Notes under the pieces: model-generated
Told to the model about the DNA's origin: nothing
Seen by the model: the letters and a program-made list of their open reading frames with translations, nothing else
Database searches by the model: none
Source: Dehalococcoidia bacterium
GTDB lineage: Bacteria > Chloroflexota > Dehalococcoidia > Lucifugimonadales > GCA-2712585
Reading direction: 5' to 3'
DNA length: 64,000 bases
Assembly (NCBI GenBank): GCA_965208725.1
Contig: CBDBPI010000001.1
Span: 969,033-1,033,032 of the forward strand
Program-made: the position numbers and the translations under genes
Shown here: positions 2-45,487 of the stretch, piece after piece
Layout: every line of letters begins with the position of its first letter
Position numbering within the stretch: the stretch's first letter is position 1

Positions 2-1135
2 GAACGAGACCTCGACTTCGACGGCGACTTCCACAACAAGGAAGGCCCCCTGCCCGTCCGGCGCGTTCCCCAAACCGAGTGGGAGCCCAATCTCCGCGCC
101 TTCCATCAGGCCTGCGTAGACCGCGGTTTCCCCGCAAGCCCGGATATGAACCTCCCCGACGCTGCCGGCGTCGGCGCCTATCCCGTCAGCAACGTCGGCG
201 GACTCCGCGTCAACACCTCAATGGCCTACCTGGACCCGGCCAGGCACCGCCTCAACCTCACCATCCGGGGCAACACCCTCGTCCACAGGATTCTTCTGGA
301 AGGGAATCGCGCCGTCGGCGTGGAAGTCATCAGCGACGGACAGATCTTCAGCGTCTACGGCCATGAAATCGTCTGCAGCGCCGGTGCTTTCGGTTCTCCC
401 ATGCTGCTCATGCGCTCCGGCATCGGCCCCGAAGACCACCTGACCGACATGGGCATCGAAACGAAGCACAACCTCCCCGGCGTTGGCCGCAACCTCAGAA
501 ATCATCCCGTATCTGGCGTAATCTACCGGGACGTTTCTATGGAACCGAAGGACTCCGTCCTCAGCCTCGTCTTCCTCCGCTACACCGCCTCCGGCTCAGA
601 CACCCCACACGACATGTCCATCAGCGTGGACAACCGTTGGGTCTTCGACGGCGTCCCCCACACCCGCCTCAGCGCCTGCCTTGAGTACGCCCGCGGTGCC
701 GGTCGTCTGACCCTGACCTCCGCCGACCCGTCAGCGCCGCCCCACCTCGAATACAACTACCTCCAGGACCCCTGGGACCTTGCCCGCGTGCGGGAAGGCG
801 TCCACCTCGCCATCGAACTGGCCGAAAGCCCCGCCCTGAAAGGTCTGCTGGCCCGTCGAGTCGCCCCCAACGACGAAGAAATGGCCTCGGAGGAGTCTCT
901 GAATCAGTGGATTTTGGAGAACGTCACCACGGGCCACCACTCCTCCGGCACCTGCAAAATGGGCCCCGCTTCCGACCCCATGGCCGTCGTCGACCAGTAC
1001 GGCCGCGTTCACGGCCTCGACGGTCTCCGCGTCGCCGATGCGTCCATCATGCCCGACGTAGTCCGGGTAAACCCCAACGCCACCTGCATCATGATCGGCG
1101 AGAAAGTCTCAGATTTCATCCGCCACCACCCCTAA
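2..1135 (+). CDS. GMC family oxidoreductase (choline dehydrogenase/MftG-like), 5'-truncated by window edge
   Basis: Frame open from base 2 (ERDLDFDGDFHNKEGPLPV...); CSAGAFGSPMLLMRSGIGP, GVGRNLRNH, HSSGTCKMG, GLRVADASIMP motifs. Confidence 0.93.
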   Translation, partial: ERDLDFDGDFHNKEGPLPVRRVPQTEWEPNLRAFHQACVDRGFPASPDMNLPDAAGVGAYPVSNVGGLRVNTSMAYLDPARHRLNLTIRGNTLVHRILLEGNRAVGVEVISDGQIFSVYGHEIVCSAGAFGSPMLLMRSGIGPEDHLTDMGIETKHNLPGVGRNLRNHPVSGVIYRDVSMEPKDSVLSLVFLRYTASGSDTPHDMSISVDNRWVFDGVPHTRLSACLEYARGAGRLTLTSADPSAPPHLEYNYLQDPWDLARVREGVHLAIELAESPALKGLLARRVAPNDEEMASEESLNQWILENVTTGHHSSGTCKMGPASDPMAVVDQYGRVHGLDGLRVADASIMPDVVRVNPNATCIMIGEKVSDFIRHHP

Positions 1136-29260: not shown

Positions 29261-29539
29261 TTAGGAGGCGGCGGCTACCTCCAGGGAATCCACCTTCGCC
29301 TGAATAACGTCGCGAAGCTGCTTCACCCTGGTAAGATCGGGGTACTTGCCGTCCTCTTCCGAGCGGTCGAAGATCTTCTCTCCGTCCAGGTAGACCTCAA
29401 GGCGGCCGTTGGCCCCGGGGGTCAAAGAGATTCCGATGTCGGCTCCAAAGTACCGGTAGAACTCATTCGCCATCCACGTGGCGGTCGCGTGGTACTGTCA
29501 AGGTACGCAATAGACGATGTCAACATTAACTTTCCACAT
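29261..29539 (-). CDS. Rdx (SelT/SelW/SelH) family selenoprotein, in-frame UGA at 29498-29500
   Basis: MWKVNVDIVYCVP-TGA-QYHATATWMANE..LTPGANGRLEVYLDGEKIFDR..YPD; CxxU in canonical position; GAGGGG RBS. Confidence 0.88.
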
Positions 29540-39336: not shown

Positions 39337-41157
39337 ATGAAGATTGCCGTTTGCGTCAAGCAGGTGCCGGTCCTCGCCCGCATCGAGTTTGACTACGAGA
39401 AGAAGACCATCCAGAGGGAGGGTGTCCCCCTGGAGATGAACGTCTTTGACCTCATCGCCTTGGGTCGTGCCATCGAGCTGAAAGATGAGGTCGGCGGCGA
39501 GGTCACAGCCATCACTATGGGTCCGCCCCAGGCCAAAGAAGTCCTCGCTCATGCCCTCGCCGTCGGTGCGGATCACGGCGTCATCATCTCGGACCGGGTC
39601 ATGGCCGGCTCAGACACCCTGGCAACCTCCCGCACTCTGGCCTTGGCGCTTAAGGATAAAGGCTTCGACCTGATCCTCTGTGGCAGAAACAGCACCGACG
39701 CCGAGACGGGGCAGGTGGGGCCGGAGCTTGCGGAAATTCTCGGTATCCCCCACGTAAGCCGCGCCCGCAAGCTGGAGTACAAGCCCGACTCCAACAGCGT
39801 CGTGGTAGAGAGGGAAACTGAAGAAGGCTATGAGGTCCTGGAGGTGGGACTGCCCGCCCTGGTGACTGCCACCGAGGGCTTGAGCGAAGAGCGCTACGCC
39901 CGCCGCCGCGTATTGATGGAGGCGCGAGAGCGTCCCGTGGAGGAGATAAAGGCATCACAGCTATCCGACGACTCTTCACTCTTCGGCGCGGAGGGCTCAC
40001 CCACCTGGGTTGAAGACATCCGCCTCCTCGAACCACAGAGACTGGGCGTTGTCATTGAAGACGTCAAACCGAAAGATGCAGCCCAAGAGATTGCTGATAG
40101 CATCTATAATCAGCCTGTATCCGTCGAAACTAAACTATTATCAGAATTCATATGGCAGAGATACGACGACGGACAGGGCCCAATCATCTGGGTCGTCGCG
40201 GAAAACTCCGCCAGCGGCCTCCGACGCTCCACTCTGGAAAACCTCGGCAAGGCCAGAATGCTCGCTGCAGACCTCCACGCACAGGTCCACGCCGTCTTGG
40301 TGGAGGACTTCTCAAACGAGGATATCGTAGCCCTTGCCCGCTACGGCGCCGACTTTATCTTGAACCTAGCCCCCGCCGTCTATCGTCACCCCACCGGCCC
40401 GGCCACGGCAGCATTGTTCGCCCGTGCCTTGACGGACTATGATCCTTACGCGGTGCTCTTCTCCTCCACCGCCAACGGACGCGACCTGGCCTCCCGGGTC
40501 GCCGCCCGTCTCTCCCTGGGCCTGACCGGCGACTGCATTGACCTTGAACTGGATGACGAAGGCAGGCTCGTTCAACTGAAGCCCGCCCTGGGGGGCAACG
40601 TCGTCGCCCCCATCCTCTCGAAGACCAAACCCTACCTCGTCACCCTCCGACCGGGCCTGCTGTCCCCCGTCACTCCTGAGGACGCCCCGCCTTTTGAGTC
40701 AGGCTTCCCTGAGTACGACTACCATAGCCCGGACCCCATACGCTTAATCGAGACTCACGTCGAAGAAGACGCCGGGGGGCTGGAGTTGGAGCAGGCCGAG
40801 GTCGTCATCGGCGTGGGCATGGGCATCGGCGGCCCGGAGTCCCTCCCCAGGATCAGGCAGCTGGCAGGTAGACTGGGCGCCTCCATCGCGGCCACCCGCA
40901 GCGTCACCGACATGGGCTGGCTCCCCAAACAGCTTCAGGTGGGTCTCACGGGACGGGCCATTGCTCCCAAACTCTACATCGCTGTCGGCATTCGCGGCGA
41001 CTTCAACCATGTCGTAGGCATTCAGAAGGCGGGTACGGTAATCGGCATCAACACCACCCGGCGTCATCCCATCTTCCAGGCCTCCGACTTCTGCATCCTC
41101 GGCTCGTGGGAGGAGTACCTGCCTCCCCTCGTGGAGGCGCTGGCGAAGAAGGACTAA
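39337..41157 (+). CDS. Electron transfer flavoprotein beta-alpha fusion
   Basis: N-half MKIAVCVKQVP, GSDTLATS, DAETGQVG (EtfB); C-half GLTGDC, QVGLTG..PKLYIAVGIRG..HVVG (EtfA). Confidence 0.92.
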   Translation: MKIAVCVKQVPVLARIEFDYEKKTIQREGVPLEMNVFDLIALGRAIELKDEVGGEVTAITMGPPQAKEVLAHALAVGADHGVIISDRVMAGSDTLATSRTLALALKDKGFDLILCGRNSTDAETGQVGPELAEILGIPHVSRARKLEYKPDSNSVVVERETEEGYEVLEVGLPALVTATEGLSEERYARRRVLMEARERPVEEIKASQLSDDSSLFGAEGSPTWVEDIRLLEPQRLGVVIEDVKPKDAAQEIADSIYNQPVSVETKLLSEFIWQRYDDGQGPIIWVVAENSASGLRRSTLENLGKARMLAADLHAQVHAVLVEDFSNEDIVALARYGADFILNLAPAVYRHPTGPATAALFARALTDYDPYAVLFSSTANGRDLASRVAARLSLGLTGDCIDLELDDEGRLVQLKPALGGNVVAPILSKTKPYLVTLRPGLLSPVTPEDAPPFESGFPEYDYHSPDPIRLIETHVEEDAGGLELEQAEVVIGVGMGIGGPESLPRIRQLAGRLGASIAATRSVTDMGWLPKQLQVGLTGRAIAPKLYIAVGIRGDFNHVVGIQKAGTVIGINTTRRHPIFQASDFCILGSWEEYLPPLVEALAKKD

Positions 41158-42044
41158 CGGGCCAGCCGACGCATGAACATGGTGGTCAGGTCTACGAACA
41201 CAACCAGAATCAGGTACCAGACCAGCAGCAGTGCCACGTCCGTATATCTGAATAGGCTCATGTCCAGCAGAAACTCCCGTCCCAGCCCACCGGCGCTGAC
41301 CAGCCCTACCACCACCGTCGTGCGGATGACCACCTCCCACCGGTAAAGCAGGTAGGTGAGAAACTGGGGCAGCGCCTGGGGCAGAATGCCGTAGGCAAGC
41401 ATCTGGAAGACACTGGAGCCGGACGTACGCAACGCACGGGCCGACCTGGGGTCCAGGTCTTCCACCACCTCGGCGGACAGCTTCCCCAGAATCCCGTAGT
41501 TGTGGATGCCCAGGGCAATCGCCCCCGCCAGTATCCCCGGACTGAAGGCGAAGACCACAATCATGGCGATTATCAGCTCCGGTATGCCCCGGCTGAAGAT
41601 GAACAGTCCCCGCAGCAGGTAGTAGAGTGCCCGCGACGGCAGAGAGGCGGAGGAAGCAAGCTCGCCCATTGCCACGTTGCGGGCCGCCGGCAGGAAGGTC
41701 AGCAGCGCCCCGACGCCCGCTATGCCCATAGCCAGTACGCTCATCGCGAGGGTATCGTAGGCAAGCATTCCCGCGTCCATCCACTTGTCCCACTGGAGAA
41801 AGGCGGGTGTTCCTTCGGTGCCCAAACCCGCAAGCTGCCCCAGAAAATCCCCTGCCTGCCGCCACGTTTCCCCTCTGAACAACTCCCGGAAGCCGCCGTC
41901 GGCCACGAAAAGCAGGTACCCCCAGGAAGCACAGCCCAACACCAGAAAAATTGCCACCGATACCCACAACGGATTCGGTCTGATGCCCCGGTTGGAGGTC
42001 ACAGTCTTGAAGAGCGTCACGAGGTGAGATACCTCCTGACCCAT
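41154..42044 (-). CDS. PhnE/PtxC-like ABC permease
   Basis: RGIPEL, GILGKLSAE, YGILPQALP, YRWEVVIR, GLVSAGGLG. Confidence 0.9.
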   Translation of the reverse strand: MGQEVSHLVTLFKTVTSNRGIRPNPLWVSVAIFLVLGCASWGYLLFVADGGFRELFRGETWRQAGDFLGQLAGLGTEGTPAFLQWDKWMDAGMLAYDTLAMSVLAMGIAGVGALLTFLPAARNVAMGELASSASLPSRALYYLLRGLFIFSRGIPELIIAMIVVFAFSPGILAGAIALGIHNYGILGKLSAEVVEDLDPRSARALRTSGSSVFQMLAYGILPQALPQFLTYLLYRWEVVIRTTVVVGLVSAGGLGREFLLDMSLFRYTDVALLLVWYLILVVFVDLTTMFMRRLAR

Positions 42045-42853
42045 GAGCTCCACAGGTCAACCAGCAGCACCAGCCCCACCAGTACGTAGAGCAGCGTCCA
42101 CACTTCGTTGAAGTAGAGGTCCGACAGGGAAAGCTGGATCTGCATGCCTAGCCCACCGACTCCAACGAATCCCATAATGGCGGCGGAGCGGATGGCGCAC
42201 TCGAACCGGTAGAAGGTATAGCTCAACATGTCCGGCAGGGCCATGGGCAGCCTTCCATAGATCAACACCTTGGTCTCTGATGCTCCCGATGCTCGGAGGG
42301 CACGAAGGGGTTCGGCGGGGACGTCGTTGAGGAAGTCGGCGTAGATACGCCCAAGAATGCCTGCGTAGGGGATTGCCAGGGCAAAAATCGCCGCTGCCGG
42401 TGAGAGCCCCACGGCTGCAACAAAGAACCAGGCCCATATCAACTCGTGAACTGCGCGCATGGCCCCAAGCAGAAACCGGAACGCCGCCACACCGGGCACC
42501 CTGACACGCAAGCGTCGCGCCAGCACCCCCGAGGCCAGCATGCCAAGGGGCAGCCCCATAGCGACTGCGAGGCAGATTCCCGCCACTGCGTAGGCGATAG
42601 TCTTCCAGGCGGAACTGAGGGCCAAGCCAAGGAAATCCACCGATAGCTCCGGCTGGATGGCGGCCTGGAAGAACTGTCCGATGGAGCCCAGTCCGCCCGG
42701 ATGGACTGGAGAGCTACCCCACGAAAGAGAGGTCAGGCTCCAAAGAAGGACAACGACAAGCAGCAGGGTCAGGAATCCCCGCCCGCGGAAGAAGTCGCCG
42801 CCCCGTCTACGGGTGGCTTGGGGCGAAGTTGTAGAGGCGGTTGAGGGCCTCAT
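42017..42853 (-). CDS. PhnE/PtxC-like ABC permease
   Basis: RAVHELIWA, AIPYAGILG, YRFECAIRSAAIMGFVGVGGLG. Confidence 0.9.
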   Translation of the reverse strand: MRPSTASTTSPQATRRRGGDFFRGRGFLTLLLVVVLLWSLTSLSWGSSPVHPGGLGSIGQFFQAAIQPELSVDFLGLALSSAWKTIAYAVAGICLAVAMGLPLGMLASGVLARRLRVRVPGVAAFRFLLGAMRAVHELIWAWFFVAAVGLSPAAAIFALAIPYAGILGRIYADFLNDVPAEPLRALRASGASETKVLIYGRLPMALPDMLSYTFYRFECAIRSAAIMGFVGVGGLGMQIQLSLSDLYFNEVWTLLYVLVGLVLLVDLWSSWVRRYLTS

Positions 42854-43577
42854 CCGTCAGTTGCTCTACGGGCAGGTCGAATTCCAGGGTCCCCTTGCGG
42901 AGTCCGACGGCCCGCGAAAAGTATGTGCGCGTCAGGTGGGTGGAGTGAACGCTGGCAATGAGGGTCTTGTTGGACTCAGCGACTATGGACGTCAGCAGCT
43001 GCATCAGGTCTTCGGCGCGGGCCGGGTCCAGGGAGGCGACCGGCTCGTCGGCCAGCACCACCCGCGACTCCTGAGCCAGCAGCCGGGCCATTGCTACCCG
43101 CTGCTGTTCTCCGCCGGAGAGGTGGGACGTCCTTTCGTGCAGCTTTTCCGGAATGCCCACCCGCTCCAACGCCCGCTCCACCATCTCGCGTTCCCGCAGG
43201 GATACGAGGGACACCAGCGATTTCCACAGGCTCCATCGTCCTAGCCGTCCCGCCTGCACGTTGTGTTTCACCGAGAGATGGGGCACAAGGTCAAGCTGCT
43301 GATGCATCATGCCCACCAGTTGGGCGAGGTGGGAGCCGTGGCTCATGGAAGAGAGGGGTTGTCCGGCCAGCAGCACCCGGCCCTCGCTGGGCTGCTCGAT
43401 ACCCGCAATGAGGTGGAGCAGAGTGGTCTTTCCGCTGCCGCTGGGGCCGAGGACCGCGACCCGTTCACCCTCTTGAATCTCCAGCGAGAGGGACGAAACT
43501 GCTGCATTGCCGTTGTACCGCTTGGACACCCCTTCCAAGCGGACTATGGGGGAAGGACTCAGGCCGTTGGTCGACAT
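42807..43577 (-). CDS. PhnC-like ABC ATP-binding protein
   Basis: GPSGSGKTT, NVQAGRLG, LSGGEQQRVA, LADEPVASLDP. Confidence 0.92.
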   Translation of the reverse strand: MSTNGLSPSPIVRLEGVSKRYNGNAAVSSLSLEIQEGERVAVLGPSGSGKTTLLHLIAGIEQPSEGRVLLAGQPLSSMSHGSHLAQLVGMMHQQLDLVPHLSVKHNVQAGRLGRWSLWKSLVSLVSLREREMVERALERVGIPEKLHERTSHLSGGEQQRVAMARLLAQESRVVLADEPVASLDPARAEDLMQLLTSIVAESNKTLIASVHSTHLTRTYFSRAVGLRKGTLEFDLPVEQLTDEALNRLYNFAPSHP

Positions 43578-43578
43578 G

Positions 43579-44469
43579 CTACTGGAGCATCCCCAGGGAT
43601 TTGGCCACGGACTCGATGGCGGCGTAGTTCTCATTCGTGGAGGCGACGAAGGAGTCGGTTCGGAAGGCGTCGAGGAGGTCGGCCTGGGTTTCGTCGAGGT
43701 GCATGGTCAACAGGGCTTCCTGCAGACGTTCGGTAAAGCCTTCGCCGAAGGTCTCGTCCAGGTCACCCCGGACCGACCAGTTGTAGTTGAAATAGGGAGG
43801 AGTGACGTCCACCTGTCGCGCCTTTGTCGTGTCCACACGGCCATCGGCGACGGCCTTGTCCCAAACGGTGTTGCTGAGGGCGCCGGCCTGGAAGGAGCCG
43901 GATTCCACCAGCTTCCATGTGGTGTCGTGGGAGCCGGAGAAGTTGGGCAGGCCGTTGAAGTCGGTTTCAGGGTCTACGCCCGCTTCCAGCAGGTAGTAGC
44001 GCGGCATGAGGTGGCCGGAGGTGGAGTTGATGCTGCCGAAGGTGAAGGTCAACCCGTCCAGGTCTTGCATTCCCTGAGCCGGCAGGTCGGATTGGACGAT
44101 ATAGACGGAGACGAACTCAGCGTCGATAGGGCGTTGGGCGATGGCCATAGCTCCCGGCGCCTGAGCGCGGGCCTGGGCGCCGGTGAGGGCCCCGAACCAG
44201 GCCATATGCAGGTCTGCGTTGGCAAAGGCGGTGACCACTGCGGCGTAGTCGATGCTGGGCTTGTACTCAACGGGCACTCCCAGCTTGTCGCTGAGGTAGT
44301 CGGACAGGCCGTCGAAGCGCCGCACCAGCAGGGAAGTTTCCTGGTCGGGGATGCCGCCTATGTAGAGGGTCTCTGGAGCGTCGCCGTCGTCGCTGCCGCA
44401 GGCGGCAAGCAAGGCCAATGCCAAGAGCAGCATTGGGGCAATCAGCGCGAGTTTCGTAGTTCTGTGCAA
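43579..44469 (-). CDS. PhnD-like substrate-binding lipoprotein, putative selenate ABC transporter clade
   Basis: LAACG lipobox, IPDQ, AWFGALTGAQAR, TFGSINSTSGHLMP, FSGSHD..LVESG, YNW. Confidence 0.85.
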   Translation of the reverse strand: MHRTTKLALIAPMLLLALALLAACGSDDGDAPETLYIGGIPDQETSLLVRRFDGLSDYLSDKLGVPVEYKPSIDYAAVVTAFANADLHMAWFGALTGAQARAQAPGAMAIAQRPIDAEFVSVYIVQSDLPAQGMQDLDGLTFTFGSINSTSGHLMPRYYLLEAGVDPETDFNGLPNFSGSHDTTWKLVESGSFQAGALSNTVWDKAVADGRVDTTKARQVDVTPPYFNYNWSVRGDLDETFGEGFTERLQEALLTMHLDETQADLLDAFRTDSFVASTNENYAAIESVAKSLGMLQ

Positions 44470-44471
44470 GG

Positions 44472-44720
44472 TCCTTCATCTCTTTCTTCGCTTCCGGGCG
44501 ACTGCAATGGCGGGAATGCGTAGCTAGCCTGGAGCGAAGACGAGGGAAGAACTGCTAAAGGGGGAAATGTCTAAGGGGTCAACCAGGGTGCCGGAGCTTT
44601 GCAGGACGCACCTCGCCCATCCAGGCGCGACCTCAGGTAAAGCCCTCAGTGAGAATAGGTATCAAAATCGATGCGGGCATAGGGCAAAGGAATGGTATTA
44701 CGGGCGAGGGCTTTCGTCAA
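44472..44720 (-). promoter_or_regulatory. Promoter plus about 215-nt structured leader with UGA-containing uORF
   Basis: TTGACG(44715-20)-17bp-TACCAT(44692-97); ATG 44680; TGA 44633-35 and 44579-81; hairpins 44604-44632 and 44472-44551. Confidence 0.55.
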
Positions 44721-44731
44721 TGGGGAAAATG

Positions 44732-45103
44732 TCAGTCTGTCTCTGCCAAAAGGGCTTCTGCCTTGTGAACGAAACGCTCAACCTGATTCAGATGGTATCG
44801 AACAGCCTGGGCCACGTACCCATTCTCATAGAAGTTCGCGTGCAGGGTTTCAGCGGAGCCAAATAGGGCTAACAACTCCTGGTCGTCAGCCTCGTCGGTG
44901 AGATCGGAGACTGCGCGTTGGAGGGTCCAATGGCTGAAGTGACGCCATCCGCGCTCTTCGGCGTTGGCCTTCAGTATCTGAGTCGCTGCGCCCCATGCCT
45001 TCTCTGAAGCTTGTGAAAGATCTCCCTTATCGAGTTCTTCGAAAGACTGGGTCAGGAATATGCGACTTTGATTCTGATATGTATTTATTTGCTGCAAATT
45101 CAC
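44732..45103 (-). CDS. PaREP1 family (HEPN-like) protein
   Basis: EELDKGDLSQASEKAWGAA..H.SH..LHANFYE. Confidence 0.85.
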   Translation of the reverse strand: MNLQQINTYQNQSRIFLTQSFEELDKGDLSQASEKAWGAATQILKANAEERGWRHFSHWTLQRAVSDLTDEADDQELLALFGSAETLHANFYENGYVAQAVRYHLNQVERFVHKAEALLAETD

Positions 45104-45115
45104 GCTTTTCAGTTA

Positions 45116-45487
45116 TCAGGCTGATGCTTCGAGTAGTTTCTCTGCCTTGTCTACGAAACGGACGGCACGAAGGAGACTGGCTTCAACAGCCCTGGACGAG
45201 TATGCGTTCTCGTAGAAATTCATGTGAAGAAATCCCACACTGTTAAAGAGCACGGCTAAATCTGAGTCGCCAGTTTCCTCAACCAACGTACCAACTACGA
45301 GAAAAAGATCGCGGTGGGTGCAGTGGTCTAATCCCTTTTCCTGGGCGATGGCCTTTAGCAACTGAGCCGCTGCGAGCCATGCCTTCTCAGAAGCTTGGGG
45401 TAGGTCACCCTTTTCTAGGTCTTCGAAGGCCTGGGTAAAGAATATCCGGCTTTGTTTTTGGTATGTATTCGTTTGCTGCAAGTTCAC
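45116..45487 (-). CDS. PaREP1 family (HEPN-like) protein
   Basis: GDLPQASEKAWLAA..HCTH..LHMNFYEN. Confidence 0.85.
   Translation of the reverse strand: MNLQQTNTYQKQSRIFFTQAFEDLEKGDLPQASEKAWLAAAQLLKAIAQEKGLDHCTHRDLFLVVGTLVEETGDSDLAVLFNSVGFLHMNFYENAYSSRAVEASLLRAVRFVDKAEKLLEASA

Follow-up and report, generated by a model that had tools for sequence, protein, structure and literature searches.

The question raised by this locus is whether a bacterium can set its import of selenium by its capacity to decode UGA as selenocysteine (Sec). The locus lies in a stretch of 64,000 nucleotides (nt) from Dehalococcoidia bacterium (GenBank assembly GCA_965208725.1, contig CBDBPI010000001.1), referred to here as the window, and consists of a leader on the minus strand in front of an operon for an ATP-binding cassette (ABC) transporter of putative selenate specificity. 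To our knowledge, the sensing and balancing of selenium in bacteria are largely unknown, and the one well-known example at the RNA level is the E. coli selAB leader. An earlier note on this DNA proposed that the leader contains a short upstream open reading frame (uORF) with an in-frame UGA, a hairpin resembling a Sec insertion sequence (SECIS), and mutually exclusive folds that control the uptake operon. The promoter, uORF, UGA, hairpins and complementary segments that it listed are all present where it placed them, and the core of the proposal came through comparative tests in which the uORF, the UGA and the pairings proved to be conserved. From this comparison of sequences, we give somewhat better than an even chance to a cis-acting leader that ties expression of the selenium-uptake ABC operon to the capacity for decoding UGA as Sec.

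The leader features a sigma-70-type promoter (44692..44720, minus strand, as are all leader features below) with a -35 element TTGACG at 44720-44715, a 17-nt spacer and a -10 element TACCAT at 44697-44692, which is the only promoter-like site found in 44300-44900 (shuffle mean 0.3). The comparison sampled 401 genomes of the window's order, of which 98 carry the transporter, and 650 nt upstream of the transporter were read at 97 loci. A uORF ending in Gly/Glu-Phe/Tyr-Thr/Val-TGA was found at 45 of the 97 loci, a recurrence of the uORF, UGA and hairpins that is beyond chance, and the promoter pattern TTGACN-16..18-TAnnnT is present in 44 of these 45 leaders. The uORF of the window (44636..44680) has 15 codons, MPASILIPILTEGFT, and its ATG at 44680 is located 11 nt past the -10 element, which leaves a 5' untranslated region of a few nt. 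In 38 of 44 leaders the distance from the -10 hexamer to the uORF start is 6-12 nt, most often 7 or 11 nt. Given the usual spacing between a -10 element and its transcript start, transcripts would begin on the uORF start codon or a few nt ahead of it, which makes the uORF leaderless or nearly leaderless. Across leaders the uORF has 9-21 codons and a variable N-terminal part, and only its last three residues are kept, which in the window are encoded by GGC TTT ACC (Gly-Phe-Thr, 44636..44644). The third positions of these codons vary: all four Gly codons are used (GGC 18, GGT 6, GGA 7, GGG 2), Phe is encoded by TTT 8 times and TTC 25 times, and two Thr codons occur (ACC 25, ACT 7). Variation at the wobble positions indicates that the constraint acts on the peptide and shows that the uORF is translated.

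The codon that follows the uORF is the in-frame UGA at 44633..44635, the candidate Sec/stop decision codon. After GGN-TTY-ACN the next codon is TGA at 41 loci, TAA at 0, TAG at 0 and another codon at 3, and TGA is kept in six families whose hairpin sequences are otherwise unrelated. Leaders generally have one UGA; there are two in family f8 and in genus g18. By family, the leader was found at 15/15 loci of f1, 5/5 of f8, 16/16 of f14, 7/16 of f107, 1/1 of f130 and 1/1 of f132. The element is also exclusively tied to this transporter. A gene-blind scan with the RNA pattern over 185,579 species genomes returned 15 true sites among 80 loci inspected; the transporter gene comes next at 14 of the 15, and the stretch of the 15th ends before the gene could appear. 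These results bear on the rather improbable explanation that the leader is a conserved uORF or RNA switch unrelated to selenium, responding to translation status, temperature or an unknown ligand, with the UGA and the GG loops kept by lineage inheritance. The leaders do share descent and their counts are not independent, the substrate of the transporter is annotated as putative, and leader-less relatives use a divergent LysR-family regulator, all of which would suit such a switch; however, it does not account for a TGA that is never replaced by TAA or TAG across unrelated hairpins, nor for the exclusive tie to one transporter. The earlier note had asked whether a known riboswitch matches, and none does: Rfam 15 gave no family at gathering score in the window save 2 tRNAs, only sub-threshold chance matches in 44200-45000, and 0 matches at E<=1 in 8 other leaders.

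There is a discrepancy between the hairpin that the earlier note took for a SECIS and the one supported by comparison. The hairpin of the note, hairpin A (GGUCGCGCCU / AGGUGCGUCC, 44604..44632), is a stable local fold (-18.8 kcal/mol, z -3.34, 1/200 shuffles as good). It begins one base past the UGA and its loop is 10 nt away; it is probably the local 'off' alternative and not the SECIS. Within hairpin A lies minihelix D (44604..44618), formed by GGGCG at 44618-14, the loop AGGUG at 44613-09 and CGUCC at 44608-04, and this GGGCG-AGGUG-CGUCC element is the likely SECIS candidate. Minihelix D starts 14 nt after the UGA and its loop begins 19 nt after it, so that the caveat of a UGA-to-loop distance of only about 10 nt falls. 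Leaders of f1, f8 and f130 all share the minihelix unchanged, save for an A/U difference in its loop and a C/U substitution that leaves a G-U pair, and the spacer between the UGA and minihelix D is always 14-15 nt long although its sequence varies by family. This places the loop Gs near the position of G23/U24 in E. coli fdhF.

Families with unrelated stems still have a GG-containing loop 15-20 nt after the UGA, and across leaders the hairpin starts within 1-15 nt of the UGA. The f14 hairpin consists of CAGAGG-CGGAGGGUN-CCUCUG above an outer helix of 8 base pairs (bp), and this outer helix shows double changes, with AU in 5 sequences and GC in 3. The f107 hairpin is GGCC-UGGAUU-GGCU, and a hairpin CCACUC-CGGGNNN-GAGUGG occurs in f132, f107 and f33. 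The SECIS test required a stem of at least 4 bp that closes a loop of 3-10 nt; the loop had to start 15-23 nt after the UGA and to have GG among its first three bases. This test, chosen after inspection of the data, was passed by 36/45 leaders versus 25/557 ordinary TGA stops and 74/800 random TGA trinucleotides; it was also passed by 9/9 leaders of family f33 and by 3/5 genuine Sec codons of the window's genome. Rules of the bSECISearch type place the apical loop roughly 16-37 nt from the UGA with a G in the first loop positions, and most leaders agree with this rule. The shortest design was observed in L167, an f107 leader from an AT-rich genome, in which ACUCCUAAA, a strand that begins 7 nt past the UGA, pairs directly with the transporter Shine-Dalgarno (SD) strand UUUAGGAGU; in this leader the second stop is at +12 and the GG-loop hairpin is absent.

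The resemblance to the E. coli fdhF-type SECIS includes a stem-loop after an in-frame UGA, an apical-loop GG(U) about 15-20 nt on, a lower helix that can start right at the UGA, and a genome that contains selA, selB, selC and selD. Unlike the fdhF element, the one described here is found in a leader of 9-21 codons with no conserved downstream peptide and not in an enzyme gene, and its binding by SelB and the Sec insertion that it would direct are putative.

In the window the read-through extension past the UGA (44579..44632) comprises 17 codons to a second in-frame UGA at 44581-44579 (+54), and a third in-frame stop, UAG, is found at +78. The first stop in frame 0 after the UGA falls at +45..+66 in 29/44 leaders, versus 12/42 and 5/40 for the other frames, and only 2 frame-0 stops lie beyond +66, versus 18 and 21. 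The identity of the second stop codon varies, and the +45..+66 pattern spans three structurally different classes. A second stop that is concentrated in one frame in this way suggests that ribosomes do pass the UGA, and that read-through itself matters and not pausing alone. The peptide encoded past the UGA shows no conservation and has anywhere from 1 to >40 residues, and in three genera a 1-nt insertion shifts the post-UGA frame while GGGCGAGGUGCGUCCUGC stays invariant. An indel that changes the frame next to invariant nucleotides indicates that conservation after the UGA is at the RNA level and not at the protein level. The same properties make it very improbable that the uORF encodes a small selenopeptide that functions independently and simply shares a transcript with the transporter. 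A selenoprotein gene would indeed show a UGA in frame and a SECIS-like hairpin; however, neither the variable N-terminal part nor the unconserved, frame-shifted and length-variable C-terminal part fits a functional peptide. A second UGA two codons on (UGA-GCG-UGA or UGA-GGC-UGA) was observed in the f8 leaders L153, L154, L161 and L176 and in the leaders L006, L159, L173 and L192 of f14 genus g18. The second stop of L188 is UAG.

A different role for the UGA is found in leader peptides of the TnaC/SpeFL kind, which share with this leader a conserved C-terminal peptide at the stop codon (UGA in tnaC), a long C-rich spacer before the regulated genes and the presence of Rho. In such an arrangement a small molecule, either a selenium oxyanion or some other solute, would cause Gly-Phe-Thr to block release by release factor 2 (RF2) at the UGA, and the stalled ribosome would control Rho access or refolding with no Sec inserted. 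This is an unlikely explanation, although the least unlikely of the alternatives considered here. It draws on the fact that only the last three residues are conserved, with a constraint at the amino-acid level, and on the established reading of UGA by RF2 alone. The C-rich, G-poor spacer (44557..44603), which is the loop of the long-range fold described below and a possible Rho loading region, is also consistent with it, as C exceeds G in 43/45 leaders over +35..+125, Rho is encoded in the genome (578 bits), and 0 terminator-like sites were found in a search for intrinsic terminators in 44300-44900. Lineages whose second stop is 6-15 nt downstream point the same way, since long read-through is not universal. 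Stop-codon arrest leaves unexplained, however, a GG-loop hairpin at SECIS distance in 36/45 leaders (4.5-9% of controls), a fixed spacer of 14-15 nt with differing sequence, and the frame-specific second stop. TnaC and SpeFL lack a SECIS-like hairpin, and what they detect is a free metabolite within the ribosome. A Rho component that acts at the C-rich spacer may also belong to a Sec-dependent leader.

Downstream of the spacer, two folds compete for one strand. The 3' hairpin (44460..44556) buries the SD sequence and the TTG start of the transporter gene, and is more stable than expected (-36.7 kcal/mol, z -4.22, 1/200 shuffles as good); the whole 251-nt leader fold is no more stable than shuffles (z -0.45). 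Over 37 leaders the mean accessibility of the SD/start region is 0.32, versus 0.42 in 150 control genes. The 5' arm of this ribosome-binding site (RBS) hairpin is the anti-RBS strand (44527..44555), made up of GCAG at 44555-52, CCUCGUCU at 44545-38 and UCCAGGC at 44533-27, which can pair either with the RBS or with 44626-44601. The latter pairing is a long-range fold that combines GCCUGGA 44626-20 with UCCAGGC 44533-27, GGGCGAGG 44618-11 with CCUCGUCU 44545-38, and CUGC 44604-01 with GCAG 44555-52. The long-range fold and the RBS hairpin thus share the anti-RBS strand, and the 5' strand of minihelix D can leave its own helix and pair with the anti-RBS strand instead, a pairing that is conserved.

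The consensus fold was unstable, as RNAalifold on 14 leaders returned hairpin A with a GAGGG:CCCUC pairing at the uORF end, and a 12-leader run returned the long-range fold. For this reason the long-range fold was tested explicitly. In 14 f1 leaders it is paired in 92.1% of cells, versus 38-58% with the partners slid, and for the GGGCGAGG:CCUCGUCU helix the figure is 93.8% in 14 same-family leaders. Folding of transcripts that end before the RBS strand gave the long-range fold in 12/14 f1 leaders, and in 13/14 with a ribosome at the UGA, whereas full-length leaders gave hairpin A together with the RBS hairpin in 10/14. When the long-range fold was imposed, SD/start accessibility increased from 0.27 to 0.50, with a rise in 11/14 leaders and at a cost of 4-26 kcal/mol. 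Modelling thus shows two alternative, mutually exclusive folds in f1 leaders. Across all families the picture is mixed. With a ribosome at the UGA, pairing of the anti-RBS strand with the SECIS region is 0.48 versus 0.28 for shuffled sequences, and 12/32 leaders are clearly above; in transcripts that end 6 nt past the anti-RBS strand, with no ribosome, its pairing with +1..+40 does not exceed that of shuffled sequences (0.24 versus 0.19).

The overlap between minihelix D and the long-range fold brings the leader close to the E. coli selAB 5' UTR, where a SECIS-like leader hairpin reportedly also conveys the state of SelB and Sec-tRNASec to selenium-metabolism genes (bioRxiv 10.64898/2026.03.03.709296). 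By analogy, SelB-GTP-Sec-tRNASec could bind the hairpin as an operator and stabilise the 'off' fold, so that the uORF only unfolds or resets the RNA and no Sec is incorporated. The SECIS-like hairpin, the E. coli precedent and the sharing of the minihelix 5' strand with the long-range fold, by which a bound protein would block the 'on' fold, all favour this explanation, which we nevertheless hold to be improbable. The E. coli element, as described, has no uORF or UGA, is 3 nt from the SD, acts by direct occlusion and controls the Sec machinery and not uptake. The adjacency to the SD is not found here, where the hairpin is at least 130 nt from the start codon, at least 100 nt from the SD, and is preceded by the UGA. 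The in-frame UGA of a translated uORF always lies at a fixed distance before the hairpin, and the second-stop pattern suggests that the frame past the UGA is read.

A leader keyed to Sec decoding would work like the trp, his and leu leader peptides, in which a short translated leader is also placed before supply genes and scarce decoding by an aminoacyl-tRNA selects between exclusive folds. It would differ from them in three ways: the codon that regulates would be a stop codon, recoded with the help of its own elongation factor and an element in the mRNA; scarcity would bring competition from a release factor and not a simple stall; and the output, with no intrinsic terminator found, appears to be RBS sequestration or Rho action. 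In Treponema primitia, transcription of fdhFSec is reported to be selenium-dependent, with translation through the UGA and SECIS setting downstream expression via translation-transcription coupling (PMC3892789). As described there, the UGA is inside the regulated enzyme gene and selenium turns expression on, whereas the element in the window would be a dedicated uptake leader with the opposite polarity.

In the proposed mechanism, transcription would begin at or a few nt before the AUG of the 9-21-codon uORF ending Gly-Phe-Thr-UGA. A ribosome arriving at the UGA would have melted hairpin A, which would leave minihelix D at SECIS distance. With Sec-tRNASec plentiful, SelB would insert Sec and the ribosome would translate ~17 further codons, stripping the post-UGA region from the anti-RBS strand and melting the long-range fold. 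Behind this ribosome hairpin A would reform, and the anti-RBS strand would close the -36.7 kcal/mol hairpin over the SD/start, turning the operon off. With Sec-tRNASec scarce, the ribosome would end or linger at GFT-UGA, perhaps because the Gly-Phe-Thr end slows RF2; GGGCGAGG and CUGC would then be paired with CCUCGUCU and GCAG, the RBS would be open and the operon on. Binding by SelB, insertion of Sec, the direction of control (low Sec-tRNA switching uptake on) and a contribution of Rho are parts of this scheme that we infer from the arrangement of the sequence.

Several observations weigh against this reading. Minihelix D alone is not exceptional in stability (-6.5 kcal/mol, z -1.41, 20/200 shuffles as good) and, being invariant, offers zero covariation; the SECIS criterion was fitted to the data, 9/45 leaders fail it, and the leaders share a common descent. 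The long-range fold shows little covariation, with 2 pairs showing double changes, a number reached by 26/500 shuffles, and 6/25 shuffles equal the window's own leader in how well the anti-RBS strand complements the SECIS region. In several lineages the second stop comes as early as +6 (where it is mostly another UGA), +12 or +15, and in f33 the second stops are scattered, with 3/9 within +45..+66. RF2 normally terminates at a UGA when there is no Sec-tRNA, and a 'pause' at the UGA is not assured. SelB is encoded in 5/5 leader-less as well as 5/5 leader-bearing genomes, so that co-occurrence does not discriminate. The sole transcript hint is a 164-nt contig, matching 44526-44665, from an RNA library of a ~92% relative, which could be DNA carry-over; two RNA runs contain 6% of the words, leave other parts uncovered and tell nothing on transcript ends or levels. 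Four further sequencing runs contain the whole stretch and may represent the source sample. Finally, when a ribosome was placed on either the UGA or the second stop of full-length leaders at equilibrium, SD/start accessibility rose in 2/37 leaders and fell in 5/37. The mutually exclusive structures of the earlier note hold as pairings; however, a ribosome at the UGA fails to open the RBS at equilibrium. A purely thermodynamic switch was rejected on this basis, and any switch must be kinetic.

The leader could be described in kinetic terms, as the first natural attenuator keyed to Sec: a leaderless mini-ORF would gauge Sec-tRNASec/SelB, Gly-Phe-Thr would tune the race between RF2 and SelB, and release or pausing versus read-through of ~17 codons would kinetically select the fold that opens or closes the importer RBS. 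We rate this full description a little short of an even chance, from comparison and folding of the leaders. No published Sec-sensing leader was found in a search of the openly accessible literature. If the description is correct, it would provide the first regulatory evidence that TIGR04553 transporters, so far named from gene context only, import selenium, and a recoded stop codon would join the codons at which ribosome-mediated attenuation operates. A compact natural selenium/Sec biosensor would also become available, along with a varied collection of short SECIS-like hairpins from an uncultured lineage that uses selenoproteins. Gly-Phe-Thr-UGA, as a conserved context, may in addition be a natural modulator of termination by RF2.

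The leader is unique within the window's own genome and has a patchy distribution outside the families in which it is constant. It is absent at 52 loci of the order, which include 9/16 of f107 and smaller groups, with 0/16 loci positive in f24, 0/9 in f106 and 0/5 in f131; three of the 52 negative loci (L165, L187, L181) have <400 nt upstream and could have been scored negative wrongly. Elsewhere in the class, 9/21 loci of other orders have the leader, all nine in family f33. A wider sample of the phylum contained 3 other genomes of 400 with the transporter, one of which (L048) has the leader, and metagenome relatives have it at 5/60 loci with enough upstream sequence, 20 being too short. The leader-less f24 loci (L160-L209, e.g. 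L162:235-711, plus strand) feature a divergent LysR-family regulator and a short conserved intergenic region, apparently a different way to regulate this operon.

The operon consists of four minus-strand genes identified by profile matches. The first encodes a PhnD-like substrate-binding lipoprotein (43579..44469, TTG start at 44469), which the earlier note had assigned to a putative selenate clade; it matches NCBIfam TIGR04553 ('putative selenate ABC transporter substrate-binding protein') with 312.9 bits against a cut-off of 250, in agreement with that assignment. It is followed by an ABC ATPase gene (42807-43634) and two PhnE-like permease genes (42017-42853 and 41154-42053). Relatives whose binding proteins are 78-90% identical are Dehalococcoidia metagenome-assembled genomes. 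Most genomes of the same genus start the transporter at an ATG that matches 44479; in the window's genome and its closest relative (L018) this ATG is one base out of frame and the gene frame opens at TTG 44469 (44469-44479, minus strand), which could reflect a start-codon shift or a 1-nt indel.

The genome is Sec-competent. It encodes selB (329.4 bits), selA (541.6 bits) and a tRNA-Sec (74.2 bits), and selD itself has one in-frame TGA (G000:C1:509570-510493, outside the window) and is thus a selenoprotein SelD, which completes the selA, selB, selC and selD set whose presence the earlier note had left to be confirmed. A hairpin ..CCUG-GUA-CAGG.. is located downstream of the selD UGA. The CxxU selenoprotein gene that the note reported in the window is also present. 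It is an Rdx/SelW-like gene with a CVPU motif at about 29290-29539 (minus strand), with its UGA near 29500 in the context MWKVNVDIVYCVP-U-QYHATATW and a SECIS of CGCCA-CGUGGA-UGGCG 14 nt after the UGA. The note had further pointed to UGGAUGG(G)CGA as present both in the leader and downstream of the UGA of this gene; the 10-mer, which the leader shares with the Rdx SECIS, occurs at dozens of places in the genome and was dropped as evidence.

Two neighbouring regions of the window have features of their own. Upstream, the leader is adjoined by tandem genes of the Pfam family 'Archaeal PaREP1/PaREP8' in a bacterial genome (44732-45880, minus strand, e.g. 44732-45103 and 45116-45487), a region of three consecutive open frames with similar C-terminal ends, and similar ORFs precede the leader in genomes of the same genus. 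Beyond the last permease gene, a single ORF of 606 amino acids on the plus strand (39337-41157) combines electron-transfer-flavoprotein domains of the beta and alpha types (two ETF stretches and an ETF_alpha match), and looks like a fused EtfB-EtfA.

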